A stretch of 63,968 nt of DNA, filler included, from Malassezia furfur (Eukaryota): assembly GCA_052055015.1 (NCBI GenBank). It is 6 parts of 6 records of this genome, joined end to end, with 100 filler letters (N's around TTAATTAATTAA, not from the genome) between each part and the next. Parts side by side here need not be neighbours in the genome. Positions count along the whole stretch, not along the records: positions 11,259 to 22,408 come from JBQJIT010000369.1; 5 more parts are not named here. One strand, 5' to 3'. This document shows positions 1,624 through 56,149 of this stretch, piece by piece. Position 1 is the stretch's first letter, and each line of letters opens with the position of its first letter. Both the position numbers and the translations under genes were made by a program. The notes beneath the pieces are model-generated. The model saw nothing but the letters and a program-made list of their open reading frames with translations, did no database searches and was not told the DNA's origin.

Positions 1624-4309
1624 ATGCCGGCGGCGCTGCGCGGCGTGGGGGTGCGATGCTGGCACGCCGTGCGCAACTCTCATGTGTACCTGACCTTTTA
1701 CGTACGTGAGTCGACTCATACAGCGCGTACACATGCTGTGGTATTTGTTTGTGATTTTTGTCGCGTCCGGCATCCTGTACGGCGCGCGGGGTAATTCGTC
1801 CATGGCGTACATCGACTGCCTGTTCACGAGCACGGCGGCGATGACCGTCACGGGGCTCGTCACGGTTCCCGTGTCACAGTTGACCCTTGCGCAGCAAATT
1901 GTGGTGTTTGTGTTGATGATCATGGGAAACCTCATCATGGACAGCTTCCTCATTGTGCTCCTCCGCCGCTACTTTTTCGGTACCAAGCTGCACCGGTACA
2001 CGCGGCACAATGCAGGCGCACGCGCGCGTGCTCGAGATATCGAACGCCAGGAGCAGCTCCGGCACGAGGCAGAGCTTGCGCGTGTGCGCCGCTTCTTTGC
2101 ATTTGGGCCACGGAAGCGTACGGACGAGGCGCACGGTGGCGACGAGAAGGCGCACCCGCCGACCCACACCACGCAAGACCCGTCGGCTGTGCCACGCCCG
2201 GAGACCCCCGCGCACGATCCGCTACACGAAAACGCCCCGTCTGATACCCCGCTGCGCTCCATCTTAACCCAAAACCCTCACTTTGTGGGTGATCCAATGC
2301 ACAGCGGTGCGCCTCCGAGCACCTCTGCACCACTCAGCACACCCGCCCCGCTGCACGCTGCCGACGAGCGGATACAGCCGGCACCGACGCCCGATGCCCA
2401 ACCGCGACATGTCCACGTCGACGAGGCGGCCGCACCACCGATCCCGCCGGACGGGGGCGAGGACGAAGAAGACTATCTGCCGTGGCACCTCCATGGCCTG
2501 CACCGCCGGCGCATGGCACGCCCACGCACGTCGCTGTCCGCGCGCGCAAGTTCCGTGCTGACCGGAAGCGACATTGCGGCGATTCCTGGTACGGCGCTGC
2601 ACCAGATCATGATCCGCAACAAGAACAAAGGCCTTGGCGACTTTCCGACGCCGGTCGACCTGGTGATGGGACTGCTGGAGTCGTTCCGCGTGAAGCACAA
2701 ACTCAAGACGCCCGAGTCGTGCACGATGGTCGCCGAGCCGCTCACTACCGAGACCGAAGCGACTGCGGAGGGCGAAGCCGTGCACCATGCGCCCTACCTC
2801 ACGTTCAATGCACGTGTCACTGGCAACTCGCACTTTACGGGGCTCACGCATGCGCAGCGCGTCGAGCTGGGCGGTGTCGAATACCGCGCACTGGACGTCT
2901 TAGCGTGGCTCATCCCCATCTACTGGCTGACATTTGTGGTGCTGGCGCTCGTCATTTTCACACCATACATGGCGAGCAAGCACGCAGCCAAGATTCGTGC
3001 TGTGCTCAACGACCAGCCCAAACCGCCCCACAGCGCGGAGTGGTACTGGGTCTTCAATACCTTCTCGTCCATCACCAACGCGGGGATGACATTGGCAGAC
3101 TCGAGCTTTGAGTATGGATTGCGCGACGCGTACGCAATCATGGTGCCCGTCACAATCTTGGCGCTCGTGGGCAACACGGCATACCCTGTGGTGCTGCGCG
3201 CGGTGATTTGGATCATGTCGCAGTGCGTCTGGAAACAGTCACGGCTCTACGAGACGCTGCGCTTTTTGCTGGACCACCCTCGCCGATGCTTTTTGTACCT
3301 GTTCCCACAGGGCAACACACTCTTTTTGCTGGCGCTCATCATCATCCTAACCCTCATTGACTGGTTTTTCTTGCTGATCCTTGATTTAAACCGGCGCAAA
3401 TCGGGTGTGCCCATCGGCGCGTGGGTATACGACGGCCTCTTCCAGTCGCTGGCAATCCGCTCGGCCGGTTTCCAGACCTTCCACATCCTCGACCTTGCGC
3501 CGGCCGTCCAGATGCTCCAGGTGTTCATGATGTACTTGAACGATTTTCCACTCACCATGGCTGTTCGTACAACCAACGTGTTTGAAAAGGAGAGCCTGGG
3601 GAAGGAAAACGACAAGGACCCGCTGCCAGAGACCGGCAGGAGCAGCGGCGGCCGCGTGGTATGGGGCCGCTTCCTTGCCGAGCAGATGCGGCGCCAGCTC
3701 GCGTTTGACCTATGGTGGATCGCCATTGCGGTTTGGATCGTGTTGATCGTGGAGCAGGCCAAGATCGAGGAGCAGGAAAAATACCCCAACCTGACTGTGT
3801 TCACCATTTTGTACGAGATGATCTCGGCGTACGGCACGGTCGGTTTATCCTGCGGCGCACGATTCCACAATACGTCGCTGAGCGGCGACTTTAGCACCTT
3901 TTCCAAACTCATCATGATTTCCGTCATGGTGCGTGGCCGACACCGTGGATTGCCCGTGGCGATCGATCGAGCGATCATGCTTCCGAACGAGCTGCTCGCA
4001 TACGAAGAGTCGCACAAACTCTACTTCTCTGACTCGGACGACAGCTCGTCGGACTCATATTCGTTCGAAGAAGCCGATGAAAACGATCAGCATGGCACTG
4101 GCGACGGAAACGAAGGGCCGCAGTCCAGTCCTACGCAGGCTCCGAATCCGCTGTCTACCACTGACGAGGACCAACGCAGCCAAGAAGTGCCACTGCAGCC
4201 AGTCTGGTCTCACCGCGGCGCCGCTCGCAGCCACTTTCATCTCCCTCCCACGGCAGGACCCCAGGGTCCCACAAATGGACCACAGCCAGACCACGGCTTG
4301 TACTTGTAA
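1624..4309 (+). CDS. TRK1: Trk-family K+ transporter, paralog A
   Basis: Exon 1624-1701 plus a 22-nt intron (1702-1723) gives LTFY|RVH. Pore motifs TVTGL, TNAGM, RSAGF, AYGTVGLS; also ELGGVEYRA, FLLDHPRRCF, RGRHRGLP. Confidence 0.95.
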
Positions 4310-4628
4310 ATAGGTTGGTGGATGCATCGTCTCTCGGGCATTCCCTTTGTACTGTAGAAATAGTTGAAATACGAGGCTCAAGGCACCGGGTTAGTGCTTG
4401 ACATGCTTCACGAACAAAAAAAAAGCTTATACGCATGGACCGTTTGTGCCAAATGCCGGTATAGATGCACAGCACGTCACATTCAAATCACGTCCGTTGT
4501 CCATAGCGTGCCTGAGTGGTGGCCCATGCGCCTGTCCGGCAGCACGAGCAAAATCGCGCAAGCGCCACGTGGCAGAATGCTGCGCAGGGCCGTGCGGAGA
4601 AGCACGTTGGACACGGGCACACGTCGCC

Positions 4629-7128
4629 ATGGAGACTGGACAGGATGCGGGAGAGCCGGAGGCGCCGTGGAGCGCAAGCCGAGATGTAGTGGGAGGGATA
4701 CGACAGTTTTTTCGACGGTACATGAACTATTATGTACGTCAAAACACTCATTCAGCGCGTGCACATGTTCTACTTTGCCGTCACAATATTGGCTGCGTCC
4801 GGCATCTTGTACGGCGCGCGCGGGAATACCGATATGCGGTACATTGACTGTCTGTACATGGCCACGTCCGCCATGACCGTGACTGGACTGGTCACCGTCC
4901 CAGTATCACAGATGACGCTCGGACAGCAAGTGGTGCTGTTCATCCTGATGATCATGGGCAATTTGATGCTCAATAGCCTGTTTATGGTGCTGGCCCGCCG
5001 CCGATTTTTTCGAAGCAAGATCGATACCGTGTTTCAGCGGAGTGCGACTGTTCGGGCCCGGATGCACGACATCGAGGAACAAAACCGTCGACAACGCGTG
5101 ACGGACACGGAAAAGGTCCGGAGGTTCCTGGGTCTGGGCAAGGACGAGCCCGCAAAGGTCCCCTTTGCGGTCCAATCGCCGGCCTCCGACTCGATCCAGG
5201 CTCGCGGAGAGCAGCGACGCCAACGTCTCCATGCAGGCATGGTCCATCGCACAGACGAACCAGCACGTCAGGTCAACCCTACAGGTCATGCAACGACCAT
5301 GGTTTCGTACGAGCGGATGGTGGACACGGATGACCCCCATCAAGGCAGTCAAGCAGACGTTCATTACGAGAACGATGCCTTTGGAGATCAGCAGGCCGAC
5401 GAAATGCACGCAAATGCCAGTGTACCCCGGCGCATGCCTCCGCCGGAGCACCTCGGCAACGCCGACGCAGGCAAGAAGCCACAGCGTGTGCAGACCGTTT
5501 CGTACGCTGATCCGCTTACATCTCGGACGGTTCCAGTTGAGGGATTGCGTGCTCGGCGCGTAGCGACCGTTGGGACAAGGGAGTCCCTAGCTCGGGATGA
5601 CCAAACAGGGGCGTCGTCGGGCCCCTATGCAGCCCTGACACGAACCTTGTCGCAGAACAAAATCAAAGGGCTCGGAGGGCTTCCCTCACCCATCGAGTGT
5701 GCCTTCATTCTCCTGGATGCACTGCACCTTACGCATCACTTCCGAGTTCCGCGCACGGCCACAATGGCATCGACTTATGCCGACGTCGAGCCGACGACCG
5801 AGGGCGGGGGCAGCGCGGTGCGCCCTGCACCCTACCTCAGCTTTGACGCACAAGTGACGGGCAACTCGCACTTTCCTCACCTAACGCATCTGCAGCGGGC
5901 CGAGCTGGGTGGCGTCGAGTATCGAGCGATCCAAGTGCTATGCTGGCTCATCCCGCTGTTCTGGCTGGGCTGGACGCTGCTGGCGATCGTTGTGTGTACG
6001 CCGTACATGGCCAGCGACAGCGCATTGGGATACCGCCAAGTATTGGGCGAGCAGCCCAAGCCTCCCCGCAACGCGGAATGGTACTCCATCTTTAATGTGG
6101 TGTCAGCCATCACCAATACCGGCATGTCGTTGGCGGACGGAAGCTTCGAAGGGGGGCTGACCAACGCCTACCTCTTGATGATTTTTGTGGGGGGGTTGGT
6201 GCTGGTGGGAAACACCATGTACCCCGTTCTGCTGCGCTTAAACATCTGGATGCTTTCCAAGGCCGTTTCTCAAAGGTCGCCGCTGTACGAGTCGCTGCGT
6301 TTCCTGCTGGACCACCCCCGGCGGTGCTTTGTGTACCTCTTCCCCAGTGGCAGCACATGGGTCCTGCTTGGCACCGTGGTGGTGCTCAATGTGGTCGACT
6401 GGTTCTTTCTCCTGATTCTCGACCTGGGCAAGCGCCACGCGTCGCTCTCCACCGGCACCTGGGTATTTGATGCGCTCTTTCAAGCCGTGGCCGTCCGAAC
6501 GGCTGGCTTCCAGACATTTAGCATCCTGAGCCTGGCGCCCGCCGAGCAGATGCTCCAGGTGTTCATGATGTATCTTTCGGCCTACCCCATAACCATGGCC
6601 GTACGCACGACCAACGTTTATGAAGAAGGCAGCTTGGGGTTGTACGACGACGAGCTGCGCGACGAGGCCAGCGGGGCACAAAGCAGCACCAACGTATGGG
6701 GTCGTTTCCTCTCCGAGCAAGTGCGTCGACAGCTTGCGTTTGACCTTTGGTGGATCGCGCTGGCGGTGTGGACCGTGCTCATTGCTGAGCAGAGCAAGGT
6801 GGAAAATACGACCAAGTACCCGAACCTATCGGTGTTCACGGTTCTGTACGAAGTGATTTCCGCATACGGCACTGTGGGTCTCTCGGTGGGTGCGCAATAT
6901 TCCAACACGTCCCTGAGTGGGGACTTTGGCGTGGTCTCCAAGCTCATCATGATTGCAGTCATGTTCCGCGGACGGCATCGTGGCCTGCCGAGCGCCATTG
7001 ACCGCGCAATTCTGCTGCCCAGTGAGGTGCAGGCATTGGACCGCACACATGATGCGCACATTGGTGTTAGTCGGACAGGCACTGCAGAAGCGCCTGCCGA
7101 GCTACGCAACGGCGTCGACGGCGCGTAG
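4629..7128 (+). CDS. TRK1: Trk-family K+ transporter, paralog B
   Basis: 22-nt intron 4734-4755 gives MNYY|RVH; same four pore motifs and C-terminal RGRHRGLP. Confidence 0.95.
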
Positions 7129-7436
7129 CTGCGACCAACGTACGGCTCGCATGTGTCTTTGTGCAAGTTGAGGGATAGGCATCGCCCGCGTCACCCCTTT
7201 TTGGCAAAAAATGTTCTTGTAAATCGTATCATGTGTATATAAGACTCGCTTGTGTCCCCAAAGGCGCGTCTGGATGAGCGCATCGTGCCCCGGGTCGAAC
7301 TTCTGTCGGATCGACGGGGCAGCGCGTGTCCGATCTGGCAGCGCCCGCAGCACGGACCTCGGGCACGTGATGGCTAGGTGAGTTGTGCTGCGCCCACATT
7401 TTGGCGCGTCGTTGCAGCGCGCGCGCACCGCGAGAC

Positions 7437-10377
7437 ATGGGCTCGGACCTGGACAGCGACTCGGAGGACGAGCCCCAAGGGGCGCTTCAGCGCTTCCAGC
7501 GCGGCTTCCGCCATTTCTTTATGACGTACATGAACTTTTATGTACGTGTAAGAGCTCACGCAGCGTGCCCATATGATCTGGTTTATCCTGGTGAGCTTTG
7601 TCGCGTCAGGCATCATTTATGGGATCCGAGGAAACGGCAATATCGCGTACATTGACTGCTTGTTCATTGCGGTGTCAGGCATGACGGTTACGGGCCTGGT
7701 CACGTACCCCGTGTCGGAGCTGACGCTTGCGCAGCAAATTGTCGTGTTCATCCTAATGTCGATTGGAAATCTGGTCATCGACAGCGTGGTCATCGTGCTG
7801 CTGCGCCGGCACTTTTTCGGAAAAAAGTTCCGGAAAGTGGTCAAGCGCAGCGCGTCCGTGCGTGCGCGCATGCGGGATATCGAGAACCAGGAGCACAAAC
7901 ACCACGAAGAGGAGATGGAGTGGGTGCGCAGTTTCTTTGGCCTGCGGCACATTGAGCACGACATGCACGACCCGCAGGATGCCCAGGCCCAGAAAGAGAA
8001 GCGCAAACCGACTAAGCCCGCCACAGATAAGTCCAAGGGCCATGGATCGGCGAAGCGGCCCAAACTCCATGCCGGCATGGTGCAGCGGATGGACGAGCCG
8101 GCACGGCAGGTGAACCCGACCGGGCAGATGACCACGATGGTCGCCAACCCCGAGCCGCTCGAATTTGCGAGCCCTGTGCTGCAAGGAAGCAATGAGCCGA
8201 TGATGCCCTCCATCCTGCAGACCAGCGACGCGGCGGCAGACGCCCATGACGAGAAGCAAACGCCCAACATTCGCATTTCTGAGCCGACATCCGACGCGCC
8301 CGACCAGGGTATCCGCATCGTCGAGCCCGACCCGCAAAGTACCGACCGGAGCATCCGTATCGCCGTGCCCGCGGCAGAAAGCGGCGAGCCGAGCGTGCGC
8401 ATCCGCGAGCCACGGCGCGACGACGTCTTTTCCTCGAGTGCCACGTCGAAGTCCATGCCGCAGCGACGCCGGTCGACAAGTGACGACGATCGCCCCAAAG
8501 AGGCGAAGCAAATGCGCCGCGTGCACACCGTATCGTTTGTCGAGCAGACGCCCGAGCAAAAGCAAGAGCACGAAGAGCTGCGCCCTACGCGTGCCACCAC
8601 GCTCGCGACCGATAATCCATTTTCGGCTCGGTCTCTGTCGTTTGGGCGCACCAATACGATGCAGACACGCAGCGACACAGTGCGCGCGCCGCATGCCGCG
8701 CTGCACCGGACCATGACGCGCAACAAGGACAAGGGGCTGGGCGGCTTCCCCTCGCCGCTCGAGTGGGCCGTCGGCCTGCTCGAATCTTTCAACGTCAAAC
8801 ACCGGCTCAAGGTGCCGCGGACCGCGACAATGGCATCCGCATGGCCCGATCGTGTGAGCACGATCGAGTCGGACCGGGGCGGCGTGCGGCTGGCGCCCTA
8901 TCTGACGTTTGATGCGACAGTCACGGGGAACTCGCACTTCCACAACCTTACGCAGGCGCAGCGCAACGAGCTGGGCGGTGTCGAGTACCGTGCGATTGAT
9001 GTGCTTGCGTGGCTCATCCCCACCTACTGGATCATGTGGGTGCTGCTCGCGATCATCATCACGACACCCTACATGGTGAGCCAGAGCGCCCAGTCCTACC
9101 GAAACGCGATCGATGACCAGCCCAAGCCGCCGCACAACGCGGCATGGTTCTGGATTTTTACGGTGGTGTCGTCGATCACTAACACCGGCATGTCGCTTGC
9201 CGACGCCAGCTTCCAGGGCGCGCTGCGCAACGGCTACATGATGCTTGTTCCCGCAGGGATCCTCGTGCTGGTCGGCAACACGGCGTATCCAGTGATGTTG
9301 CGCTTCTTTATCTGGCTGCTATCGTGCTGTGTGCGCCGCGAGTCGCACCTGTATGAGACGCTGCGCTTCTTACTCGACCACCCACGGCGGTGCTTTGTGT
9401 ACCTTTTCCCGCGGGAAAACACGTGGTTCTTGTTTGCTCTGGTGATCGTCCTGACGTTCATCGACTGGTTCTTCTTGATGGTGCTCGACCTCGAGATGCG
9501 GCACGAGTGGCCGTCGATCGGCACGTGGGTGTTTGACGCGTTGTTCCAGTCGATCGCGGTGCGCTCTGGCGGCTTCCAGACGTTTGACATCCTGCGTCTG
9601 GTGCCTGCCGAGCAGATGCTGCAGGTTTTTATGATGTATCTTGCCGTGTTCCCGCTGACGATGGCCGTGCGCACCACCAACGTATACGAAGAAGGCAGCC
9701 TGGGCGTGTACGACGACGAAGGGCAGAAAGACGAGAACAGCATCGACGACGGGCATGCAGTGTGGGGCCGCTTCCTCTCGGAGCAGGTGCGCCGGCAGGT
9801 CGCCTTCGATTTGTGGTGGATGGCGCTGGCGCTGTGGATCGTGCTGATTGTCGAAAAGGGCAAGATTGGCGACCACGAAAAGTACCCGAACCTCACGGTG
9901 TTCACCGTGCTGTATGAGATGGTGTCCGCCTATGGCACCGTCGGCCTGTCGTGTGGTGCACAGACCGTAAATGCGTCGCTGAGTGGCGACTTCAGCGTGA
10001 TCTCCAAGCTGATCGTGATTGCAGTCATGATCCGAGGACGACACCGTGGGCTACCGAGCGCGATTGACCGTGCCATTATGCTCCCCAGTGAGCTCCATGC
10101 GTATGACCAGACACACGATGCGCACCTGAACGTACCCAATGCCGGAATCTTGGCGTCCTACCCCACTGCGGGCAGCGACAAAGCATGGGACGGCGACGAA
10201 GACGCGGGCCAGTCGACGGGTGTGCGTACCACTTTTGCCGACGACGACGGGTTGCAGCGCGTGTCGTCACGTCCCAGTGTGACGCCCGCAAGCACCGACG
10301 TCACGCCGACGCCCGAGTCAACGGGTGCGACACCCACGCCCGTGGCGTCCAAACCTACGTCCGTGCACTCTTTGTAA
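7437..10377 (+). CDS. TRK1: Trk-family K+ transporter, paralog C
   Basis: 22-nt intron 7542-7563 gives MNFY|RAH; same motifs; longest cytosolic loop of the three. Confidence 0.95.
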
Positions 10378-11158: not shown

Positions 11159-11258
11159 NNNNNNNNNNNNNNNNNNNNNNNNNNNNNNNNNNNNNNNNNN
11201 NNTTAATTAATTAANNNNNNNNNNNNNNNNNNNNNNNNNNNNNNNNNNNNNNNNNNNN
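11159..11258. other. Artificial contig linker (N run, TTAATTAATTAA, N run; 100 nt)
   Basis: The same spacer with six-frame stops recurs at 22409-22508, 33653-33752, 44878-44977 and 56050-56149. Confidence 0.99.
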
Positions 11259-11942: not shown

Positions 11943-14855
11943 CTACCGAAATCCTACGCGCCGGCCGCCCCGCTTGGGCGCCAAACCGGGCACCGCGATG
12001 CCGTGCCGCATGCCGCCGGGGTGCGCCTGCGTCTTGCGCCGCTTGGCCTGCTCCTCCTCCTCGGCACGCTGCCGGTCGCGCGCAAACTGCGCCTCGAGCT
12101 CGACGACGTGCCCGAGCTCCGTGTCGCGCCCGCGGCGCCCCGTCGTGCCGAGCGCGTTCCGCTCGCGGATCGAGTAGAATGCGCTGCCGAGCTCCGCGAG
12201 CCAGTACGGGTCCACGGCGGTGACCGTGCCCATGTACTCCTTCGAGGTGAGCGTCAGCTCGTGGTACACGACATAGTCGGGCGTGTACCCCAGGCCGTAC
12301 AGCGCGCTCGTCGGGTGCAGGTTCATCGGAATGCCCGTGCGGCAGTGCACGTACTCGCCGATGCCCTTGACGCGCGCCGCCTGGTGGAAGTAGCCCGAGG
12401 TGATGCACTTGCGCACAATGTCCCAGTCCGTGCCGCACGACTTGAGCGGCAGGCGCTGCGACTGCAGAATGTCGGTCAGCTGCGCACGCACTTCGCGCGC
12501 CTTGCGCAGCAGCTTGCCGTGCAAAAAGTGTTGGTTGCACCACGCGTCTTTGTACCCGTGGTTCTTCCACTGCGCATACACGTGCAGCAGCGTCAGGTGG
12601 TCGCTCTCCGCCACGTAAAACTTTTCGCGCGCCGCGTCGCTCTCCTCCTGGCGCTCCTTGGGGCGGTAAAAGACGCTCGGCACACTCAGCATGCTCACGA
12701 TCGTGAGCAGCTCCTCGGAGCACCCATACTCCACACTCATGATCAGGATCTTGGCAAGGCTCGGCTCCATGGGGAACTCGCTCATGCGCTTCCCCAGCGG
12801 CGTCAGGTTGCCGAGGTTGTCGAGCGCGCCCAGCACCCACAGCTGGTACATGCTGTTCAGGATGTTGTCCTGCGGCGGCGGGTCCATAAAGTCAAAGTCG
12901 AGCAGGTCCTTCACCCCGAGCGACTTGAGCAGCAGCACCGTGTTCGCCAAGTTCGTCCGCTGGATCTCGGGGATCGTCGCGGGGAACATTTCGTTGTGGA
13001 ACGCATTCTCGGTGTACAGGCGGTACGCCGTGCCGCTCCCGGTGCGCCCCGCACGCCCCGAGCGCTGCGACGCATTCGCCTGGCTGATCGGCGTGATCTG
13101 CAGCGAGTCCATGCCCACCCGGGGGTTGTACAGCTTCAGCTTGCTGTACCCCGCATCCACGACAAACATGATGCCGTCGACGGTCAGCGACGTCTCGGCA
13201 ATGTTGGTCGCCACGATGCACTTGCGCTCGCCGTGCTCGGACGGCAAAAAGATGCGCGCCTGCAGGTCGGCGGGCATCTGCGAATAGATCGGCAGCATGA
13301 GCAGCGGCGGCGCATCGTCGATCTGCTTGAGGCGCTCCAGCGCCACCTCGCACGTCACCTCAATGTCCTCCTGCCCGGTCATGAACGCAAGAATGTCGCC
13401 GCCCGAGCCCTGGCCGAGGTGGATCGAGAGGATCTGCCGCACGGTGCTGTCCACGTAGTCCTCACACGGCGTCTTGCTGAACAGCACATCCACGGGGAAG
13501 GTGCGCCCGGGAATCGTAAAGATGGGCGCCGCGCCAAAGAACCGCGAAAAGCCCTCGGCGTTCATCGTCGCCGAGGTCACGATCAGCTTCAGGTCGCGCC
13601 GCCGCGCCAGCACCTTTTTCAGCAGGCCCATCAGCACGTCCGTGTTGAGCGACCGCTCGTGCGCCTCGTCGAGGATGATCGCCGAGTAGCGGTCCAGGTC
13701 GCGCTCGGTCAGCGACTCGCGCAGCATCACACCGTCGGTCATGTACTTGATCTTGGTATCCTTGCTCGTGCAGTCCTCGAACCGGATCGAGTAGCCCACC
13801 GTGCCGCCGAGCTCACACTCCATCTCCTCGCTCACGCGCTTCGCGACGCTCATCGCCGCCACACGCCGCGGCTGCGTACACCCAATCAGCCCATACTCCG
13901 TATAGCCGTCCTCGTGCAGAAACTGGCACAGCTGCGTCGTCTTGCCACTGCCCGTCTCGCCAATCACCACCACCACCTGGTTCTCGCGGATGGTGCGCAT
14001 CAGATCGTCCCGGCTCGCAAACGCCGGCAGGTACTGCCGCTGCTCCCGCAGCGACTTGCTCCGGCTGAACTTGGACATGCCGCGCTGCTTCTGTGCAAGG
14101 TGCGCCGCATACCGCGACTCGCCCTTCCCCTCGTCCTCCGCAGGGTTGATCTGGCTCTGGGCGCCGGCCGCCTCGTCGTCGTCCTCCTTCACGCCCATAA
14201 TCTTGCCGAGCTGCGTGCCTTTGAGCGACGCAACGCGGCCCGCCGCCTTGGCACGCTCCGCACGTTCACGGTGCTCCTTGACGAGCCGGCTGCCTTTCAG
14301 CGCAAACACGGCCATGTCTGCCGTCGGGTCGCGCACAGGGTTGACGGGCGCAATCTGCTTCGTATACACCGTCTTGCCGTCCAGGAAGGGGGGGCGCAGA
14401 TTGTGCACCATCAGATGCACACGGTCATCCCCATGCTCGTCCGGGTCGTCGTCCAGCACACGGGGGCCCCCGACACCGCCGGTCTGCATCCGGTTCGTCT
14501 CCCAGGCATCGGCGTCCGCTCGGTAGGCCGCCTGGCGCGCCGTGATGCGCTCGTGCCGCTTGGCAATCGAGCGCGACACCTCGCCAGGCATGTCCTCGTA
14601 CTGTGCAAATGGGTTGTGGTCCACATCGCCCGCCACGCCCCCGTCGTCGTCCCGGAGGTACCAGTCGCGGTCAACGTCCGCCTCGTCTTCTTCCTCCTCC
14701 CAGTGCCGGTCGCCCAGCCGCGGCGTGTCTTCCTCTTCGCCATTTGGACGGCGGCGTACCGACTCGTCACCATAGCCCAGGAACGGCGTCGGCGCCAAAT
14801 ACTGCGCCGCCGCACTGCGCGCGGCGGCGCGACGTGCTTCGCGCGAACGGCTCAT
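11943..14855 (-). CDS. PRP16: Pre-mRNA splicing DEAH helicase Prp16
   Basis: [27 protein letters not shown]; Prp16-type N-terminal DRDWY and [16 protein letters not shown]. Confidence 0.97.
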
Positions 14856-14954
14856 GGACGCTCCTCGCCACGCCACGTGCGGTCGCCGCTCGTCCAGTGG
14901 AGGCTGACGCACAGGCCGCGTCAGCTCGACGCGACGCGTTCGGCTGCTCCCACG

Positions 14955-16233
14955 ATGCTCACCGTCGTAGACGCACAGCAGAACACGTATGCTTTCGACG
15001 TAGACGCGTCGATCGAGGTCGAAAACTTCAAGGCCGTCGTCGAGGCGGATACCGACGTCCCTGCGGCGCACCAGCAGCTCCTCTTCCAAAATGCGCCCCT
15101 CACCGACGCGCAGAAATCGCTGGCGGCGTACGGCGTGCAGGACGGCGACCTGATCGTCCTCCAGGACACGCGCCAGCGCGCCCCGAACACCGCTCCGGAC
15201 ACGGACGCCGCCATGGCAGAGGCCGTGCGTGCCCAAATCCGCGGCTCGGTCGCGCTGCAAAACCAACTGCGTGCGGTACGTTGCGCCATGCTGACTCCAG
15301 AGCAACCCCGCTTTGCTCGAGGCCGCAATGGATTCCCAAGAGGCCTTTGCGCGCACCCTCGCACACCAGCGTGAGCAGCTCAGCCAGGTGCAGTCGCTGC
15401 AGCAGCTCGCCAACTCGGACCCGTTTGATGTCGAGGCCCAAAAACGCATCGAAGAGGCCATTCGTCAGGAACAGATTGCCGAGAACATGGAGCATGCCAT
15501 GGAGTACACACCAGAGGCGTTCGGTAACGTCACTATGCTCTACGTCGATCTCAAGGTGAATGGCCACCCCGTCAAGGCATTTGTGGACAGCGGCGCACAG
15601 GCCACCATCATTAGCCCCGAGTGTGCCGAGCGGTGTGGCATCATGCGCCTGCTGGACAAGCGCTTCTCGGGCGTGGCCAAGGGGGTAGGCACGGCCAAGA
15701 TCCTGGGCCGCGTGCACAGCACGCAGATCCAGCTGGGTGGAGACCTCTTCTTGCCCTGTGCCTTTACGGTGCTCGAGGTATGTACTCTAGGATGTGCCTG
15801 CCAGCGATACTAACCTACGCAGGGATCCAGTGTTGACATGCTCTTTGGGCTAGACATGCTCAAGCGCTACCAGGCCAACATCGATCTCCAGAAGAATGCG
15901 CTGGTTATTCACGAAAAGGTGATTCCGTTCTTGGCCGAGCACGAGCTTCCCAAGAACCATCTCACGGACCCAGAGCACGAATCCAGCAGCGAGTCCAAGA
16001 AGGCCGAGGAACAACCATCTACGAGTAAAGGAGGGACTGGTCTGCACCAACAGCCCACCGCACCTACCTCGGCCCAGTCCCAGCCCCATGCCGCCAAAGC
16101 CAGCACGTGGTCGGACGAGGCCATTACCACCTTGACTAACCTGGGCATCGACCGAAATCTCGCAATTCAATTATTAAATGCAAGCGACGGAAATACGGAT
16201 ATTGCGGCAAGTATTTATTTCCAAAATATGTAA
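14955..16233 (+). CDS. DDI1: Ddi1 (UBL - retroviral-type aspartyl protease - UBA)
   Basis: UBL N-terminus; [23 protein letters not shown] catalytic motif; C-terminal UBA; introns 15276-15300 (25 nt) and 15778-15822 (45 nt). Confidence 0.96.
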
Positions 16234-16622
16234 ACAGTGAATACGCAATAAATAACAATTCTAGTCGAGAAAACAAATATATTTGTAATTTAAATAATAT
16301 AAAAAACAAAAACTATATTTTGTTATAGTTCATGACAAAATTTTAACAAAATGCACTTAAATAATGTATTCTTTAAAATGCTAAAAAAGAAAATATATTA
16401 TATGAATGAAAGTAAATATAATATTTAATGTAATTATTAAACCATACATTTATATACCTTTATATAGTCACGATAACTATTTAATAGCAGAATGGTTTGC
16501 ATAAATATTTAATCTTATTCAATGAAGATTTAAATATTGTAATAAATAATAATATGGTATATATTTTGCAACAATCGCTCTTATCATCAACATAATATAA
16601 TTTGAATATTTATTGTACCTAC
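16234..16622. other. AT-rich island, candidate centromere core
   Basis: Hand count of 65 G+C in 360 nt (16261-16620), about 18% GC, in a window that is roughly 65% GC; no ORF; lies between convergent genes with GC decaying toward it. Confidence 0.8.
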
Positions 16623-19600
16623 TTATGCCAACTCACAAATAATTGAGCGCTTGGTTCCAGCACTTATTGTTTCACGGATTCGCACTTGGAGAATTTGTCC
16701 ACGTGGAGGTGCGGGGATCTTGGGGTCCCAGATGCAGTCTACTGGGAAGCCCCCGAGCGTTTGTAGGTTGACACGGATACGTGCCTGAAGTGTGTCGTAA
16801 GTGAGGCGAACATCAGGTACGCCGACAAATGCGGGAATGGTTCCGAGGAGGTGTTTGTCCATCTCAGAGAACAGGCCAGCCTCTACTGTCTCGGGCGACC
16901 CATACCGTCTAGCTTTAGCAAGGAGTCGGTCAACGTAGGTCCATATCCAGTACCGATGGGAAGCACGTTCAATCTGTTTCACCCATGACTCCATTCTCTC
17001 AAAACGGGGAAATTGGAAAACCAGGTCGCCACGCGGTAATGTCTTCTTTCCAAACATGAAGGCCTTCATTTGATAATGCGAAAGGAGGTCCGCATACCGC
17101 CGCAGGGGACTGGTCACTCTCACATAACCCCCCGCCTTCAGCACATCCGGATCCGTGTTAGCGATATCTTTCACACCGATCCCTAACCCGTAGTGCTTCC
17201 CAGGCTGGGATGAGAAATAGGCAGGTGACAAAAAGATGTCGCGTTTTTGGAGCTCTACCACTGGCATGGCCCCCGTGACGGGGTGCTTCAGCTGCTCAAT
17301 GGTGGCCACCTGATCGGCCTCTGGGGCATCTTGGCAACGATAAGGCATGGGAAGCTCGTGCTCATCACAAAAGCTTGCAGCAACACGGCCGGCCAGGAGC
17401 ATCATTTCACTGACCATGTTTTCCGAGGAGATGCCGCCAGGCAAGCCATCAAAGGTGCCCGGCTTCAGCGGCGAGCTTGGGTCAGTCAAAGTCATATGAA
17501 TGTCGGGGAACCCTGTAAAGAATTCTGGGCCATCCGGAAGCGTCGCAGCCAGCGAAGGAAGCGGCAAAGGCGACAGAGTGACTTCTGAGGACTGGTTGGT
17601 AGCATTGACTCCCTTGCCGATGGTGATCCTTCTCGAGTTCAACTTGGACGCTAGCAGCGCCAACAGCTGCAGGTTGCGTTGCGTTGACTCCAGGTGCAGC
17701 GCCGACTCGGGGTTGCTGGGGCACTTCTTGGTCAGGAAGAACTGGTTCACATCCTCGTAGCTAAGCGTCCGCACATTGCGTACAGTACACGGCCGCACGT
17801 TCAAGTCACGAATTTCGCCCTGATCGTTCACCAAAGCACTAAACGTCAAGACCTGCTGCTCCGGGCCTGTTTCGCTGGTGTTCCCCTTCAAGCTCATTCC
17901 GTTGTAGGTGGCATAGTCTGGGAACAGCGGCCACTGGGCCTGCGGGAAATAAATGCTGGAGTACTTTTGCCTCGCCTCAACCGCCAAAGGATGATTGCGC
18001 GGAATGCGGGCCGTAGGGTCGGCAATATGAACGTGGATCCAATGGGCCCCTTCTCCCGCTGGTTCCACCGAAATCCCATCGTCCAGCTCGTGCGCATTCG
18101 CCGAATCGATCACGTAGACAGGCAGGTCCTCGAACCGCGTCCTTCGCGCTTCCTCCTCGTGGTTCAGCTGAAGTGTGCGGCGGTGCTTGGCATCGTGCAT
18201 GGCGGTTTCGTCGGCGTTTTCCTCAATGTTCTTCAAGTAGGTATCCAAGACATTCGGGTCCTCCCAGGGGACCAAGGCACCCAGGCGGATCAGGAAATTG
18301 AACACCAGCGCATGCTGAAGATCTGTTCCTGCCGAGTACACGCTGGTGCTTGTGTCACTCAGCGGTGGCTGCTCGACCGTGGTGGACAGGACGGATTTGG
18401 GGAGCGGCACCTGCTCCATTGCGGGGTGGACGATGGGTTTGAGATGAATGTGCGCTCCGACGCGTTTGATGATGGACATGGCAACGCTGCCTGTAGGATC
18501 TTCTTGCAGCTCACGACGATTGCCGACGCTGATCTTGAGGAACTCGATGATGTCTTTGTCCGTCGCCGTCCACCGAACTGTGTCGCCCTCGGCAGTGGTC
18601 GGCTGGCCCAATGTTTGGATGTGGTCACTGTCCATCGTTCCCTGCGCCTCGTGCCAGCGGATGGCCGCCCTGGCGCGCGCACAGAAACCGTCCAGAATTT
18701 CGACCGCATCCATAAGTTCCACGTCGTCCTTCACCGAGGCATCCTCCATTCCCCCCGGTCCCTGGGCCGTCATACTCGCACGAACCCACGCAGAGACGCG
18801 CGAGAGGATTTCCTGCTCCCGGAGTGAGCGGTACGTAAACATCTGGCTGTGCCGATGGGTCGTCGAGTCCACGAGGAACTGTTTCGGATGGTTCATAAAG
18901 AGCGAGTGCATTGCAAACACCGTCTCGCCGCGGAAGCGGTGCTTGACGCCGGCCTTTTCTTGGCGCAGGAAAGCGAGGTATTGGGTGAGGAGCTGCGTCG
19001 CCTCGATCGTCGTAAAGCTGCCACGGTGCAGGAGCTTGAGTCCCTTGCGCAGGAAGGCGTGCTCAGGCGCCTGCTCGTGCTCCTTCCAGTCATACTCGAC
19101 ATGGGTCTCGGTCTGTTCCTGGAGGAACAAGGCACGGAAGGCCGGGTATATTTTTTGGATCTCGTTGTCCGTCTTGCGCTGGAGCTGGCGGATTTTTCGG
19201 CAGATCCACGCGCGCTTCTCAAAGCGGGGCAAGTCGAGCGGCTCCTGCTCCATGTAGGAATTGGCGCGGCTGGCGCTCTGGCGCAGCGCGAGCATGTCCT
19301 CGTGCGACACGGCGAACTCGTCCGGGAGTGCCACAGGTGCCGCCGAGACGCGCGCCGTGGACGCCGCAACGTAGTCGCGCTTGAGCGGGGCCGCCTCCGC
19401 CGCGAGCTGCTGGTCGACAAACGCCGGGAAGCGGAGCATGACGTCGGTCGATCGTACGAGCTCGAGCACGCCCGAGATGACGACGACTGCGAGCGATGCA
19501 CCAGCGCCCGACCCCGAGCGGTCGTGCTCGTCCGGGATCGGAAGCACGACTCCGGAGAACGTCCGGCCCGTGCGGCGCACCTCGACAAAGTCGCCCGGCT

Positions 19601-19889
19601 GAATCTCCTCCATCTTGGATGCGGATGCGCCGATGGTGACGTTGTAGTCGAGCTGTTCGTCCATCTTGTCGTCCTCCGCATCTTCCTGGACGAGTTCTTC
19701 GGGTGCGAGGGTGAGCGGGGGCCGCCCGTTGGGCCGCTGCGCGGTGCGCCGCGGCTCTTTGGGCGGGTCGTGGCCGCGCGCCGTGTGCTGGCGCAGGATG
19801 CATGCGGTGGTGCAAACAGCACGCGTGCGCGGTGCCACAGGCGCGACACACAGGCGGGCGGACGCGCTGCCCCACAGTCGCGCGCTCAT
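16623..19889 (-). CDS. DSS1: Mitochondrial RNB-domain exoribonuclease (Dss1/Cyt-4)
   Basis: Arg-rich presequence; VYVIDSANAHELDDGIS, HVHIADP, VSEMMLLAG, YVRVTSPLRRYADL. Confidence 0.9.
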   Translation of the reverse strand: MSARLWGSASARLCVAPVAPRTRAVCTTACILRQHTARGHDPPKEPRRTAQRPNGRPPLTLAPEELVQEDAEDDKMDEQLDYNVTIGASASKMEEIQPGDFVEVRRTGRTFSGVVLPIPDEHDRSGSGAGASLAVVVISGVLELVRSTDVMLRFPAFVDQQLAAEAAPLKRDYVAASTARVSAAPVALPDEFAVSHEDMLALRQSASRANSYMEQEPLDLPRFEKRAWICRKIRQLQRKTDNEIQKIYPAFRALFLQEQTETHVEYDWKEHEQAPEHAFLRKGLKLLHRGSFTTIEATQLLTQYLAFLRQEKAGVKHRFRGETVFAMHSLFMNHPKQFLVDSTTHRHSQMFTYRSLREQEILSRVSAWVRASMTAQGPGGMEDASVKDDVELMDAVEILDGFCARARAAIRWHEAQGTMDSDHIQTLGQPTTAEGDTVRWTATDKDIIEFLKISVGNRRELQEDPTGSVAMSIIKRVGAHIHLKPIVHPAMEQVPLPKSVLSTTVEQPPLSDTSTSVYSAGTDLQHALVFNFLIRLGALVPWEDPNVLDTYLKNIEENADETAMHDAKHRRTLQLNHEEEARRTRFEDLPVYVIDSANAHELDDGISVEPAGEGAHWIHVHIADPTARIPRNHPLAVEARQKYSSIYFPQAQWPLFPDYATYNGMSLKGNTSETGPEQQVLTFSALVNDQGEIRDLNVRPCTVRNVRTLSYEDVNQFFLTKKCPSNPESALHLESTQRNLQLLALLASKLNSRRITIGKGVNATNQSSEVTLSPLPLPSLAATLPDGPEFFTGFPDIHMTLTDPSSPLKPGTFDGLPGGISSENMVSEMMLLAGRVAASFCDEHELPMPYRCQDAPEADQVATIEQLKHPVTGAMPVVELQKRDIFLSPAYFSSQPGKHYGLGIGVKDIANTDPDVLKAGGYVRVTSPLRRYADLLSHYQMKAFMFGKKTLPRGDLVFQFPRFERMESWVKQIERASHRYWIWTYVDRLLAKARRYGSPETVEAGLFSEMDKHLLGTIPAFVGVPDVRLTYDTLQARIRVNLQTLGGFPVDCIWDPKIPAPPRGQILQVRIRETISAGTKRSIICELA

Positions 19890-20013
19890 GGTCCGACGCG
19901 CCCCCCTCTTTCGCGCCTCCACCGCGTTCTTCTTCGCGCCACGTGATGCATACGGTTGAACGTCGTGGAGCTATGAAACTATGCCAGGTTGAGTGAGCAT
20001 ATCGATGGTGCGT

Positions 20014-22408: not shown

Positions 22409-22589
22409 NNNNNNNNNNNNNNNNNNNNNNNNNNNNNNNNNNNNNNNNNNNNTTAATTAATTAANNNNNNNNNNNNNNNNNNNNNNNNNNNNNNNNNNNN
22501 NNNNNNNNCGTCGCGCCGCGGCACGGTGTGCTGGCACCGTCACCGCGGCGTGTCTCGGCCGACCCCACGTGGCGTGTCGGACGAGCCGC

Positions 22590-33652: not shown

Positions 33653-33752
33653 NNNNNNNNNNNNNNNNNNNNNNNNNNNNNNNNNNNNNNNNNNNNTTAA
33701 TTAATTAANNNNNNNNNNNNNNNNNNNNNNNNNNNNNNNNNNNNNNNNNNNN

Positions 33753-36259: not shown

Positions 36260-38253
36260 ATGCCGGCCCCGTGGCCCGCGCGTCCACGGCGCGCCACGGC
36301 CGCCGTGCTAGCCGCATGCGCGCTCGGCACCATAGCGCACGCGCGCCCCCTGATCGAGGCGCCCGCGGCGGCGGCGTCGCTCGTGCCGAGCCGCAGCGCG
36401 GACGCGTCCAGCGTGCCGACGGCGCACTCGTCGTCGCTCGCGCTGTGCTATGACCTGCAGGCGCTGCGCTCGCTCGAGGGGCACACGCCCACGGGCCCCA
36501 ACGCGCTCGTCGACTACGACGGCGTTCTTCACGACTACTACGTGTACATCAGCACATCGATCGCGCTCGCCTTCATCATCATCTTCATCATGATCGTCGC
36601 CGTGTGCCTCCGCGACCACCACGCAGGGAAAAAGAAGCCCGAGGACGACGAGATACCCCTCGCGCACCTCTCGGCTACCTCGCCCGAGCTGCGTAGCAGC
36701 ACGTCGCGCGGCGGAGNNNNNNNNNNCGGGCCCACACCCCGCGGCACCGGTTCCTCCGTGTGCCGCGCCGCATCCCGCTTGCTCTGCGCAAGCGGCGTAC
36801 CACCCACATGCCGGCCGGCAGCCGCTCGTCGTCGAGCGGCGGCGCATCACAGCGTGCTGCGGCTGCCCCGTCGGCACCGCCGTCGTCAGCGCCGTCGCCC
36901 GACGTGACGACACCGACACACGCACCCGCCGCACCCCTCGATACCACGCTTGCTGAACTGGGGCCGCGCTCCGGGACGTCACTCGCTCCGACGCCGCCGC
37001 CCGCCGCCGTGCCGTCGCTCCACCTTCCCCCGCCGGCGCCTGCTGCGCCCGCACCGGCGCACACACCTCGCGACCCGCTCCGTGCGCCGCTCGACCAGAG
37101 CGACGTCGAGGCCGTAAACGCGCTCCCGATCGAGCCCGCGCAGCCCCCGGCGTACATTGCGCCGCCGCCGGACGCGCAGCCAGGCTCGTCGCCCCGCGAC
37201 GACCGCGGCAAGGGCCCTGCCCCGCCGCTCGAAGAGGCCGGCGGCACAGACGAACTGTTTGCGCACCTCGCGACCGACGACAAGGCGGTGCTCACCGCGC
37301 TGCACTCGGCCGCCAGTGCGCCGGCGCCGGCACTCGACACCGACCCCCTACGGCGCGCGCCGCTCGCGCCACCACCGCGCTGGGGCGCCGCGCCCAGTGC
37401 GCCGCCGATCGATGTAGACGACGCCGCGCACCCCGACACCGCACCGCCCATGCCGCTCGGTAAGGGCAAGGCGCGGCACGTGTCGGGCAGTCTGCAACTG
37501 CCGCCCACGCGCCGCACCCCGCAGTTTGCGCGGTTCGATGCGCCGACGTACGAAGCGCCGGCGCCGGCGCCGCACGCTTCGGCCAAGGAGGCCGAGGCTG
37601 AGGCGGAGCGTGCACATCTCGCGGCGCTGCTGCCCTCGGCGCCGACCGAGTGGGGATGGGCCGACGACGTACTTCCTACATACGGCACGGCGCCTTCCGC
37701 ACCGCCGCCCCACGCGGACGAGGGCGCGACACAGTCGGTGCTGGGCACAGAGGATGACGCGCTATGGGGGACCAGAAGGCCCAGCGCGCCAGCAGACGAA
37801 GCGGGACCATCGGAGATGTCGGCGCCGCAGCCGTCGGCGCCCGTGTTGTTCGTGCCTGAGCCGTCGGTGCCTGAGCCTATGGCGCGTGAGCCTGAACCGT
37901 CGGCACCACCGCTGGTCGAGCCCGAACCGTCGGCACCGCCGCTGGCCGAGCCTGGGCTGTCGGCGCCTGCATCCATCCTTGGACCCGTGGTGCCAGAAAT
38001 TGGTTCCGAGCCATCCGCGCCCGAGCTGCTGGAACCTGCACCATCGGCCCCTGCGCTGTCCGGGTCGGAGCCATCCGCCCCCGAGTCCGGGCCGTCAGCC
38101 CCCGCGTCTGGGCCATCGGGCCCCGCGTCTGGGCCATCGGCCTCCCCGCTCTCCGAGCCGGTGACGTCGGCTGCTTCCGACCCTTTGCCATCGACATCCT
38201 CGGCGATCTTGTCACCCTCTACGATCCCGTCACCCTCGGCTCCGTCATTCTGA
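36260..38253 (+). CDS. Unknown single-pass membrane protein with Pro-rich PSAP-repeat tail (frame bridged across the 10-N gap 36717-36726)
   Basis: Signal-like N-terminus, TM ISTSIALAFIIIFIMIVAVCL; after the gap a 497-aa ORF with ~13 PSAP, PPAY and LPTY. Joining the two halves is inferred. Confidence 0.65.
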
Positions 38254-44877: not shown

Positions 44878-44977
44878 NNNNNNNNNNNNNNNNNNNNNNN
44901 NNNNNNNNNNNNNNNNNNNNNTTAATTAATTAANNNNNNNNNNNNNNNNNNNNNNNNNNNNNNNNNNNNNNNNNNNN

Positions 44978-56049: not shown

Positions 56050-56149
56050 NNNNNNNNNNNNNNNNNNNNNNNNNNNNNNNNNNNNNNNNNNNNTTAATTA
56101 ATTAANNNNNNNNNNNNNNNNNNNNNNNNNNNNNNNNNNNNNNNNNNNN

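Follow-up and report, generated by a model that had tools for sequence, protein, structure and literature searches.

A putative chromosome 1 centromere core in the AT-rich DDI1–DSS1 spacer of a P1-lineage Malassezia furfur

Centromeres of Malassezia species have been described as short regions centred on troughs of GC content. In M. sympodialis, regions of 3.2–5.1 kb bound by Mtw1 are centred on AT-rich intergenic cores of 81–1152 bp with 13–20% GC and without repeats (Sankaranarayanan et al., eLife 2020, PMC7025860), and the published range of Malassezia cores is 81–1200 bp and 13–38% GC (Tables 1, 2, and 4 of the same study). For M. furfur CBS14141, that study reports seven GC troughs (MfCEN1–7) of 168–721 bp and 15.4–27% GC, confirmed by CENP-A ChIP-qPCR. 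Of these, MfCEN1 lies at Chr1:2,850,135-2,850,402, spanning 268 bp at 15.7% GC, and is placed in one row with MveCEN4, MjaCEN7, MreCEN2, and MsyCEN5 (Table 3, PMC7025860). A 12-bp AT-rich PhyloGibbs motif is enriched at the centromeres, with 7–13 matches per 500 bp (PMC7025860). A later study reports that each chromosome has one discrete GC minimum, coinciding with the validated centromeres, and predicts centromeres for twelve further assemblies from 250-bp windows with less than 40% GC (Coelho et al., PNAS 2023, PMC10410736, Dataset S1); in the available parts of its datasets, no gene names or accessions anchor the positions, the only anchors being MAT-gene locus tags. The short AT-core centromere is thus an already known kind in the genus, and the putative ortholog of the locus described below has been mapped and validated by CENP-A ChIP in a sister lineage. 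We found no study of centromeres in the P1 lineage of M. furfur, no paper naming a Malassezia centromere together with DDI1 in a full-text search, and no literature account of how AT-rich DNA favours CENP-A.

We analysed a stretch of 63,968 nucleotides from a M. furfur assembly (GCA_052055015.1; hereafter the window) and focused on the AT-rich spacer between DDI1 and DSS1 (Table 1). Judged from composition and gene order, this trough is very probably the AT-rich core of the chromosome 1 centromere of a P1-lineage M. furfur, orthologous to MfCEN1 of CBS14141 and to the predicted CEN1 of M. brasiliensis.

Table 1. Features around the AT-rich trough, in positions along the window, and identifiers of the flanking genes in annotated genomes
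Feature	Position	Strand	Remarks
PRP16 DEAH-box helicase	11943..14864	-	Divergent from DDI1; third member of the conserved flanking trio
DDI1	14955..16233	+	402 aa; three exons 14955-15275, 15301-15777, 15823-16233
Candidate AT-rich centromere core	16212..16614	.	403 bp, 17.9% GC, maximal AT-scoring segment
Intergenic spacer DDI1–DSS1	16234..16622	.	389 bp, 18.8% GC
DSS1/MSU1-type mitochondrial RNB exoribonuclease	16623..19922	-	Convergent with DDI1
Expected kinetochore-bound domain	14300..18500	.	Projected from the 3.2–5.1 kb Mtw1-bound regions of M. sympodialis
Flanking genes, CBS9595			PRP16 CBS9595_000453, DDI1 CBS9595_000452, DSS1 CBS9595_000451
Flanking genes, CBS14141			WFD46945 and WFD46947
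Flanking genes, M. brasiliensis			WFC94719, WFC94720, WFC94721 (trio consecutive, Chr1)
Flanking genes, CBS17886			WFD33073 and WFD33075
Flanking genes, M. vespertilionis			WFD06936 and WFD06934
Flanking genes, M. yamatoensis			WFC99409 and WFC99410
Flanking genes, M. psittaci			WFD43501 and WFD43502

The initial annotation had described an ORF-less stretch of 389 bp with about 18% GC, lying between two convergent genes in surroundings of about 60–70% GC. The measurements agree with this description: the spacer consists of 175 A, 141 T, 39 C, and 34 G and contains no reading frame longer than 62 amino acids, code 4 included, and the whole window, with N excluded, has 65.4% GC. Elsewhere in the window, segments of 389 bp had a mean GC of 0.653 (sd 0.051), the trough being ~9 sd lower. 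The maximal AT-scoring segment extends 22 bp into the coding end of DDI1, and the length of the core becomes 466 bp if delimited with the rule of 250-bp windows below 40% GC (PNAS 2023, Dataset S1C). An AT-rich core below 1 kb, intergenic and placed at a GC trough, is what characterizes the short regional centromeres of Malassezia, and the stretch between the two stop codons is of this kind.

Windows of 100 bp with less than 40% GC were found at six places within the 64 kb, but five of these, at about 11.2, 22.4, 33.7, 44.9, and 56.1 kb, were paired masks of 44 N, and the DDI1–DSS1 spacer is the only real GC trough within the window. Ten further spacers had 53–73% GC, and the three other convergent spacers measured 194 bp at 62%, 27 bp at 56%, and 386 bp at 62% GC; convergent termination in this genome therefore needs no AT-rich DNA. 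The masks consist of two runs of 44 N with 12 bases between them and recur ~11.2 kb apart (11159-11258, 22409-22508, 33653-33752, 44878-44977, and 56050-56149), and a single run of 10 N is found at 36717-36726. The N runs interrupt KIN17 and other genes and look like GC dips in composition profiles.

Searches for other content in the spacer matched no Rfam family and predicted no tRNA. Tandem repetition was limited to one stretch of 23 bp, and the direct and inverted matches within the spacer were all short, imperfect, and of low complexity. The single-strand DNA fold of the spacer was no better than that of shuffled sequences (z = -0.05). The spacer thus has no repeat architecture, direct or inverted, and no transposons, as is typical of the short regional centromeres of the genus. 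Recurring AATATTT-like words had also been pointed out at the outset, and here the support was weak: the spacer holds 5 copies of AATATTT or its complement, in comparison with 1.6 ± 1.4 in dinucleotide shuffles (reached by 34 of 1,000), and the repetition of k-mers in general (k = 7–10) did not exceed that of the shuffles. TAAATA or its complement, a word chosen post hoc, occurs 12 times, in comparison with 4.0 ± 1.9 and with none of the 1,000 dinucleotide shuffles reaching that number. As a surrogate for the 12-bp motif, we counted 10-mers common to the spacer and to the corresponding trough of a metagenome contig (L006, below) and found 16 against 7.3 ± 3.7 in shuffles, a weak excess that was reached by 18 of 500. 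The published qPCR primers of MfCEN4 had no matches in the window at three or fewer mismatches, which is uninformative as the locus is of the CEN1 type and from another lineage.

The genes around the trough are those that the initial annotation had named, its five labels PRP16, DDI1, DSS1, SHMT, and KIN17 all being correct. The protein encoded by DDI1 contains a ubiquitin domain, an aspartyl protease domain of the DDI1 type (Asp_protease), and a UBA domain, DSS1 is named MSU1 in one M. furfur annotation, and beyond DSS1 follow SHMT (-) and KIN17 (+). The introns of DDI1 are very short, 25 nt (15276-15300) and 45 nt (15778-15822), with GT...AG ends, and the second contains a CTAAC-like branch site. 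To the left of the trough, at a distance of 6–14 kb, are three tandem genes for TrkH-family cation transporters (1694-10377, +) with frames of 871, 800, and 941 amino acids; their GC content at third codon positions (GC3) is 0.71–0.79, below that of the genes to the right of DSS1.

The flanking proteins bear out the assigned M. furfur origin and narrow it down, being 98.9–99.9% identical to those of strain CBS9595: PRP16 is 99.9% identical, with 1 of 970 residues differing, DDI1 is identical at 400 of 402 residues (99.5%), and DSS1 is 98.9% identical, with 4 mismatches and one gap in 1,096 residues. The identities of the three proteins are 91.7–97.0% to CBS14141 and 88.6–97.4% to M. brasiliensis, the latter being the named species nearest to the P1 lineage (PMC10410736). 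For comparison, the genomes of P1 (CBS9595) and P2 (CBS14141) have been reported to be 89% similar genome-wide (PMC9040865). By these identities, the window comes from a P1-lineage M. furfur genome that is close to CBS9595 without being that strain; it may represent a different P1 isolate or, in a hybrid, the P1 half. The word "centromere" is absent from the available text of the CBS9595 assembly paper (PMC9040865).

The initial annotation had suggested a comparison of gene order with mapped Malassezia centromeres, and the outcome of this comparison was positive. The protein accessions or locus tags of PRP16 and DSS1 were at most two apart in all seven annotated genomes in which both were obtained (Table 1). 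In M. yamatoensis and M. psittaci, the accessions of PRP16 and DSS1 are consecutive, and the search for DDI1 returned none from either species; at the centromere of these two, the gene has either been missed by the annotation or been lost. We then assigned the orthologs to chromosomes by comparing the lengths of the sequences bearing them with those of the chromosomes listed in Dataset S1C. The trio was found on Chr1 in M. furfur, M. brasiliensis, and M. obtusa, on Chr2 in M. arunalokei (1,299,527 bp), M. psittaci, and M. yamatoensis, on Chr3 in M. cuniculi, on Chr4 in M. vespertilionis (844,328 bp), on Chr5 in M. nana (717,675 bp) and M. equina, on Chr7 in M. japonica (548,816 bp), and on Chr9 in CBS17886.

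In every species checked, the trio is on the chromosome of the syntenic partner of MfCEN1. Against the MfCEN1 row of the eLife Table 3, both direct checks matched (M. vespertilionis and M. japonica), as did both checks made by proxy, M. arunalokei standing for M. restricta and Chr5 of M. nana for the Chr5 type of M. sympodialis. For the former proxy, CEN2 is at 87,156 in M. arunalokei and at 87,190 in M. restricta; for the latter, Chr5 of M. nana matches Chr5 of M. caprae, whose centromere at 124,592 mirrors MsyCEN5 at 125,056. The chromosome checks did not include M. slooffiae, M. dermatis, M. sympodialis, or M. globosa. Among the chromosomes bearing the trio, the arm from the centromere to the chromosome end is 236–244 kb in Chr1 of M. 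furfur and M. brasiliensis and 241–242 kb in Chr2 of M. psittaci and M. yamatoensis.

The position within the chromosome was estimated best from gene indices and, less strictly, from accession numbers. In M. vespertilionis, whose genome has been reported to have 7.581 Mb and 3,791 gene models (PMC6344816), DSS1 is MVES_002156, and the index expected at CEN4 is ~2158 within a scaffold range of 1866–2288; the expectation is the cumulative length to CEN4 scaled to the 3,791 genes, assuming scaffolds ordered by size and even gene density, and has a resolution of ~±60 kb. The differences between accessions in all six genome pairs correspond to 1,947–2,209 bp per protein for a trio at the predicted centromere of each species, on the assumption of adjacent GenBank blocks, whereas a trio at 0.83 Mb on Chr1 of M. 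furfur would require 1,360 bp per protein; this arithmetic is compatible with an offset of a few hundred kilobases. We rejected the use of WebAUGUSTUS locus-tag numbers as positions (CBS9595_000451-453, and CBS14141_000750 for PRP16), as the two annotations give conflicting numbers and order their scaffolds arbitrarily. With the Chr1 scaffold in first place, the same tags would put the trio 0.8–1.4 Mb into it, which speaks neither for nor against the placement. Gene synteny with the mapped centromere of other Malassezia species is thus found at a resolution ranging from the chromosome level to ~±60 kb.

The same arrangement was seen outside the annotated genomes. We scanned 80 metagenome loci encoding fungal relatives of DDI1 for PRP16, DSS1, and an AT trough, and found two or more of the trio's genes in three of them (L006, L002, and L001). 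The most complete, L006 (7.8 kb, 52% GC), contains PRP16 (-), DDI1 (+, stop at 5248), a segment of 325 bp with 20% GC (5134-5458), and a convergent DSS1 (stop at 5385). This clade-B contig has M. restricta-like protein ends; an assignment to M. globosa was rejected, and one M. globosa CEN5 primer had no match in the contig. The second, L002, contains PRP16 and DDI1 followed by a run of 188 bp with 21% GC where the contig stops, and L001 covers the same locus but is truncated sooner. These two are from one Malassezia-like lineage with 59% GC and end inside or just past DDI1, L002 within the AT run, and short-read assemblies appear to break at the centromere. The remaining 77 loci are from other fungi, with neither PRP16 nor DSS1 in the flanks available and none with a trough beside DDI1; in L017, a trough is found ~7 kb from DDI1. 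No stray Malassezia DNA was found in bacterial and archaeal genome contigs. Among the loci compared, the trough at the DDI1–DSS1 spacer is an old feature of Malassezia and confined to this genus.

The AT-richness does not stop at the stop codons. The GC3 of the last 30 codons is 0.37 in DDI1 and 0.30 in DSS1, and further into the genes it is 0.5–0.8 (0.5–0.67 in DSS1), whereas the control genes SHMT, Pol delta, NOP2, and CCDC47 have GC3 of 0.90–0.97 in their last 30 codons and 0.80–1.0 across all eight bins. A similar drop was seen in L006, with GC3 of 0.20 and 0.17 at the coding ends of DDI1 and DSS1, respectively. In both clades, GC3 stays low for hundreds of codons (15823-16233 and 16623-17350 in the window; 4808-5248 and 5385-6100 in L006). 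Such a graded effect on synonymous sites, present in two clades, speaks for a local regime of mutation or gene conversion that has acted for a long time and against an insertion or an assembly error. It is possible, although we would not call it probable, that the centromere imposes a sharply bounded AT bias on its neighbours, taking GC3 from 0.9–1.0 to 0.3–0.4 independently in two clades and leaving the proteins unchanged, and that it has occupied the same DDI1–DSS1 spacer since before the split of Malassezia clades A and B (and, by gene adjacency, clade D) while its DNA has fully turned over. If true, the GC3 gradient could serve as a ruler, read from sequence only, of a recombination-cold region or of the CENP-A footprint.

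A gradient of this kind also bears on the origin of the spacer. The mitochondrial DNA of Malassezia is AT-rich, and a piece of it, or of foreign AT-rich DNA, inserted between the two genes, or else an artefact of the assembly, could account for the trough. We consider such an origin extremely unlikely: the spacer contains no Rfam family, tRNA, or code-4 frame above 62 amino acids, the AT bias extends gradually into the final codons of both genes at their synonymous sites, and metagenome contigs from other lineages independently show the same layout. Another reading would take the spacer as ordinary AT-rich 3' DNA in which DDI1 and DSS1 share a zone of termination and polyadenylation, with no centromere function. 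Both convergent transcripts must presumably end within the spacer, and AT-rich words such as TAAATA are frequent there, but the three other convergent spacers of the window, with their 27–386 bp, have 56–62% GC. Moreover, the trough has been kept beside the same genes in another clade, and the chromosome assignment follows one specific mapped centromere, which together make a mere terminator zone very unlikely.

The initial annotation had left room for a recently inactivated centromere, that is, a relic that is still AT-rich while the active centromere is elsewhere on the chromosome. Inactivation of centromeres has been documented in M. furfur, but the two inactivated sites reported lie on Chr3 and are no longer AT-rich (PMC7025860), whereas the spacer is assigned to Chr1, has 18% GC, and is as AT-rich as active cores. 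The Chr1 of P1 and P2 are reported to be collinear for the MAT loci, and only one trough per chromosome is described (PMC10410736). With these observations against it, a relic is a highly improbable account of the trough, and the reading as a centromere core is favoured by its size, its GC content, and its synteny with the partners of MfCEN1.

We therefore regard the spacer as almost certainly the core of a short Malassezia centromere, as the initial annotation had proposed. Its identification as MfCEN1 follows from synteny rather than from an alignment to Chr1 coordinates, and the site would be expected to coincide base for base with the published MfCEN1. The analysis has covered the compositional anatomy of the locus, its species, the conserved trio, the cross-species chromosome assignment, and the recurrence of the trough in a second clade. 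By analogy with the mapped centromeres, the spacer presumably binds the kinetochore in this isolate: the repeat-free AT stretch of less than 1 kb, unique within the window, would be the place where CENP-A replaces histone H3, kinetochore proteins such as Mtw1 would peak at the AT core, and weaker binding would spread over 3–5 kb, across the transcribed ends of DDI1 and DSS1 (Table 1).

The locus pins the genes flanking the MfCEN1-type centromere, PRP16–DDI1 on one side and DSS1–SHMT–KIN17 on the other, which we have not found named in print. It also provides a putative P1-lineage copy of CEN1 for comparing the turnover of centromeres between the two parents of M. furfur hybrids, as well as a clean case of AT bias spilling over into the synonymous sites of flanking genes, and it indicates that a Malassezia centromere may be recognised from composition alone.

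Beyond the genus, the trough resembles the GC-poor trough centromeres of yeasts of the Candida auris/C. lusitaniae type and the point centromeres of Saccharomyces (CDEI-CDEII-CDEIII) in being small, unique, AT-rich, and intergenic. Point centromeres, however, are defined by the protein-binding motifs CDEI and CDEIII, and these lineages are unrelated to Malassezia. The centromeres of Malassezia are regional (3–5 kb) and, to our knowledge, are not known as sequence-defined. The likeness to trough and point centromeres is drawn partly from the available text of PMC8262905.

Within the genus, the candidate core can be compared with three centromeres. CEN5 of M. sympodialis, the Table 3 partner of MfCEN1, has a 164-bp core with 18% GC in a kinetochore-bound region of 4,066 bp with active flanking genes (PMC7025860); it belongs to a different clade, and the link to it runs via the arm lengths of Chr5 in M. 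nana, M. equina, and M. caprae. CEN1 of M. brasiliensis CBS14135 (Chr1 2,818,664-2,819,157) is 493 bp long where the same rule gives 466 bp here, and the trio is likewise on Chr1, although that centromere is a prediction from GC content alone (PMC10410736). The third is MfCEN1 of CBS14141, from the same species complex and on Chr1, where the same PRP16, DDI1, and DSS1 proteins are encoded on a chromosome of 3.09 Mb and where an AT-rich, repeat-free core again sits in an intergenic GC minimum; the CENP-A ChIP-qPCR enrichment is that of CBS14141 (PMC7025860). The two differ in lineage, P1 for the window and P2 for CBS14141, and in the core, 403 bp with 17.9% GC here against 268 bp with 15.7% GC in MfCEN1, and such a difference in core size between hybridising lineages could have consequences for the stability of chromosomes in hybrids of M. 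furfur.
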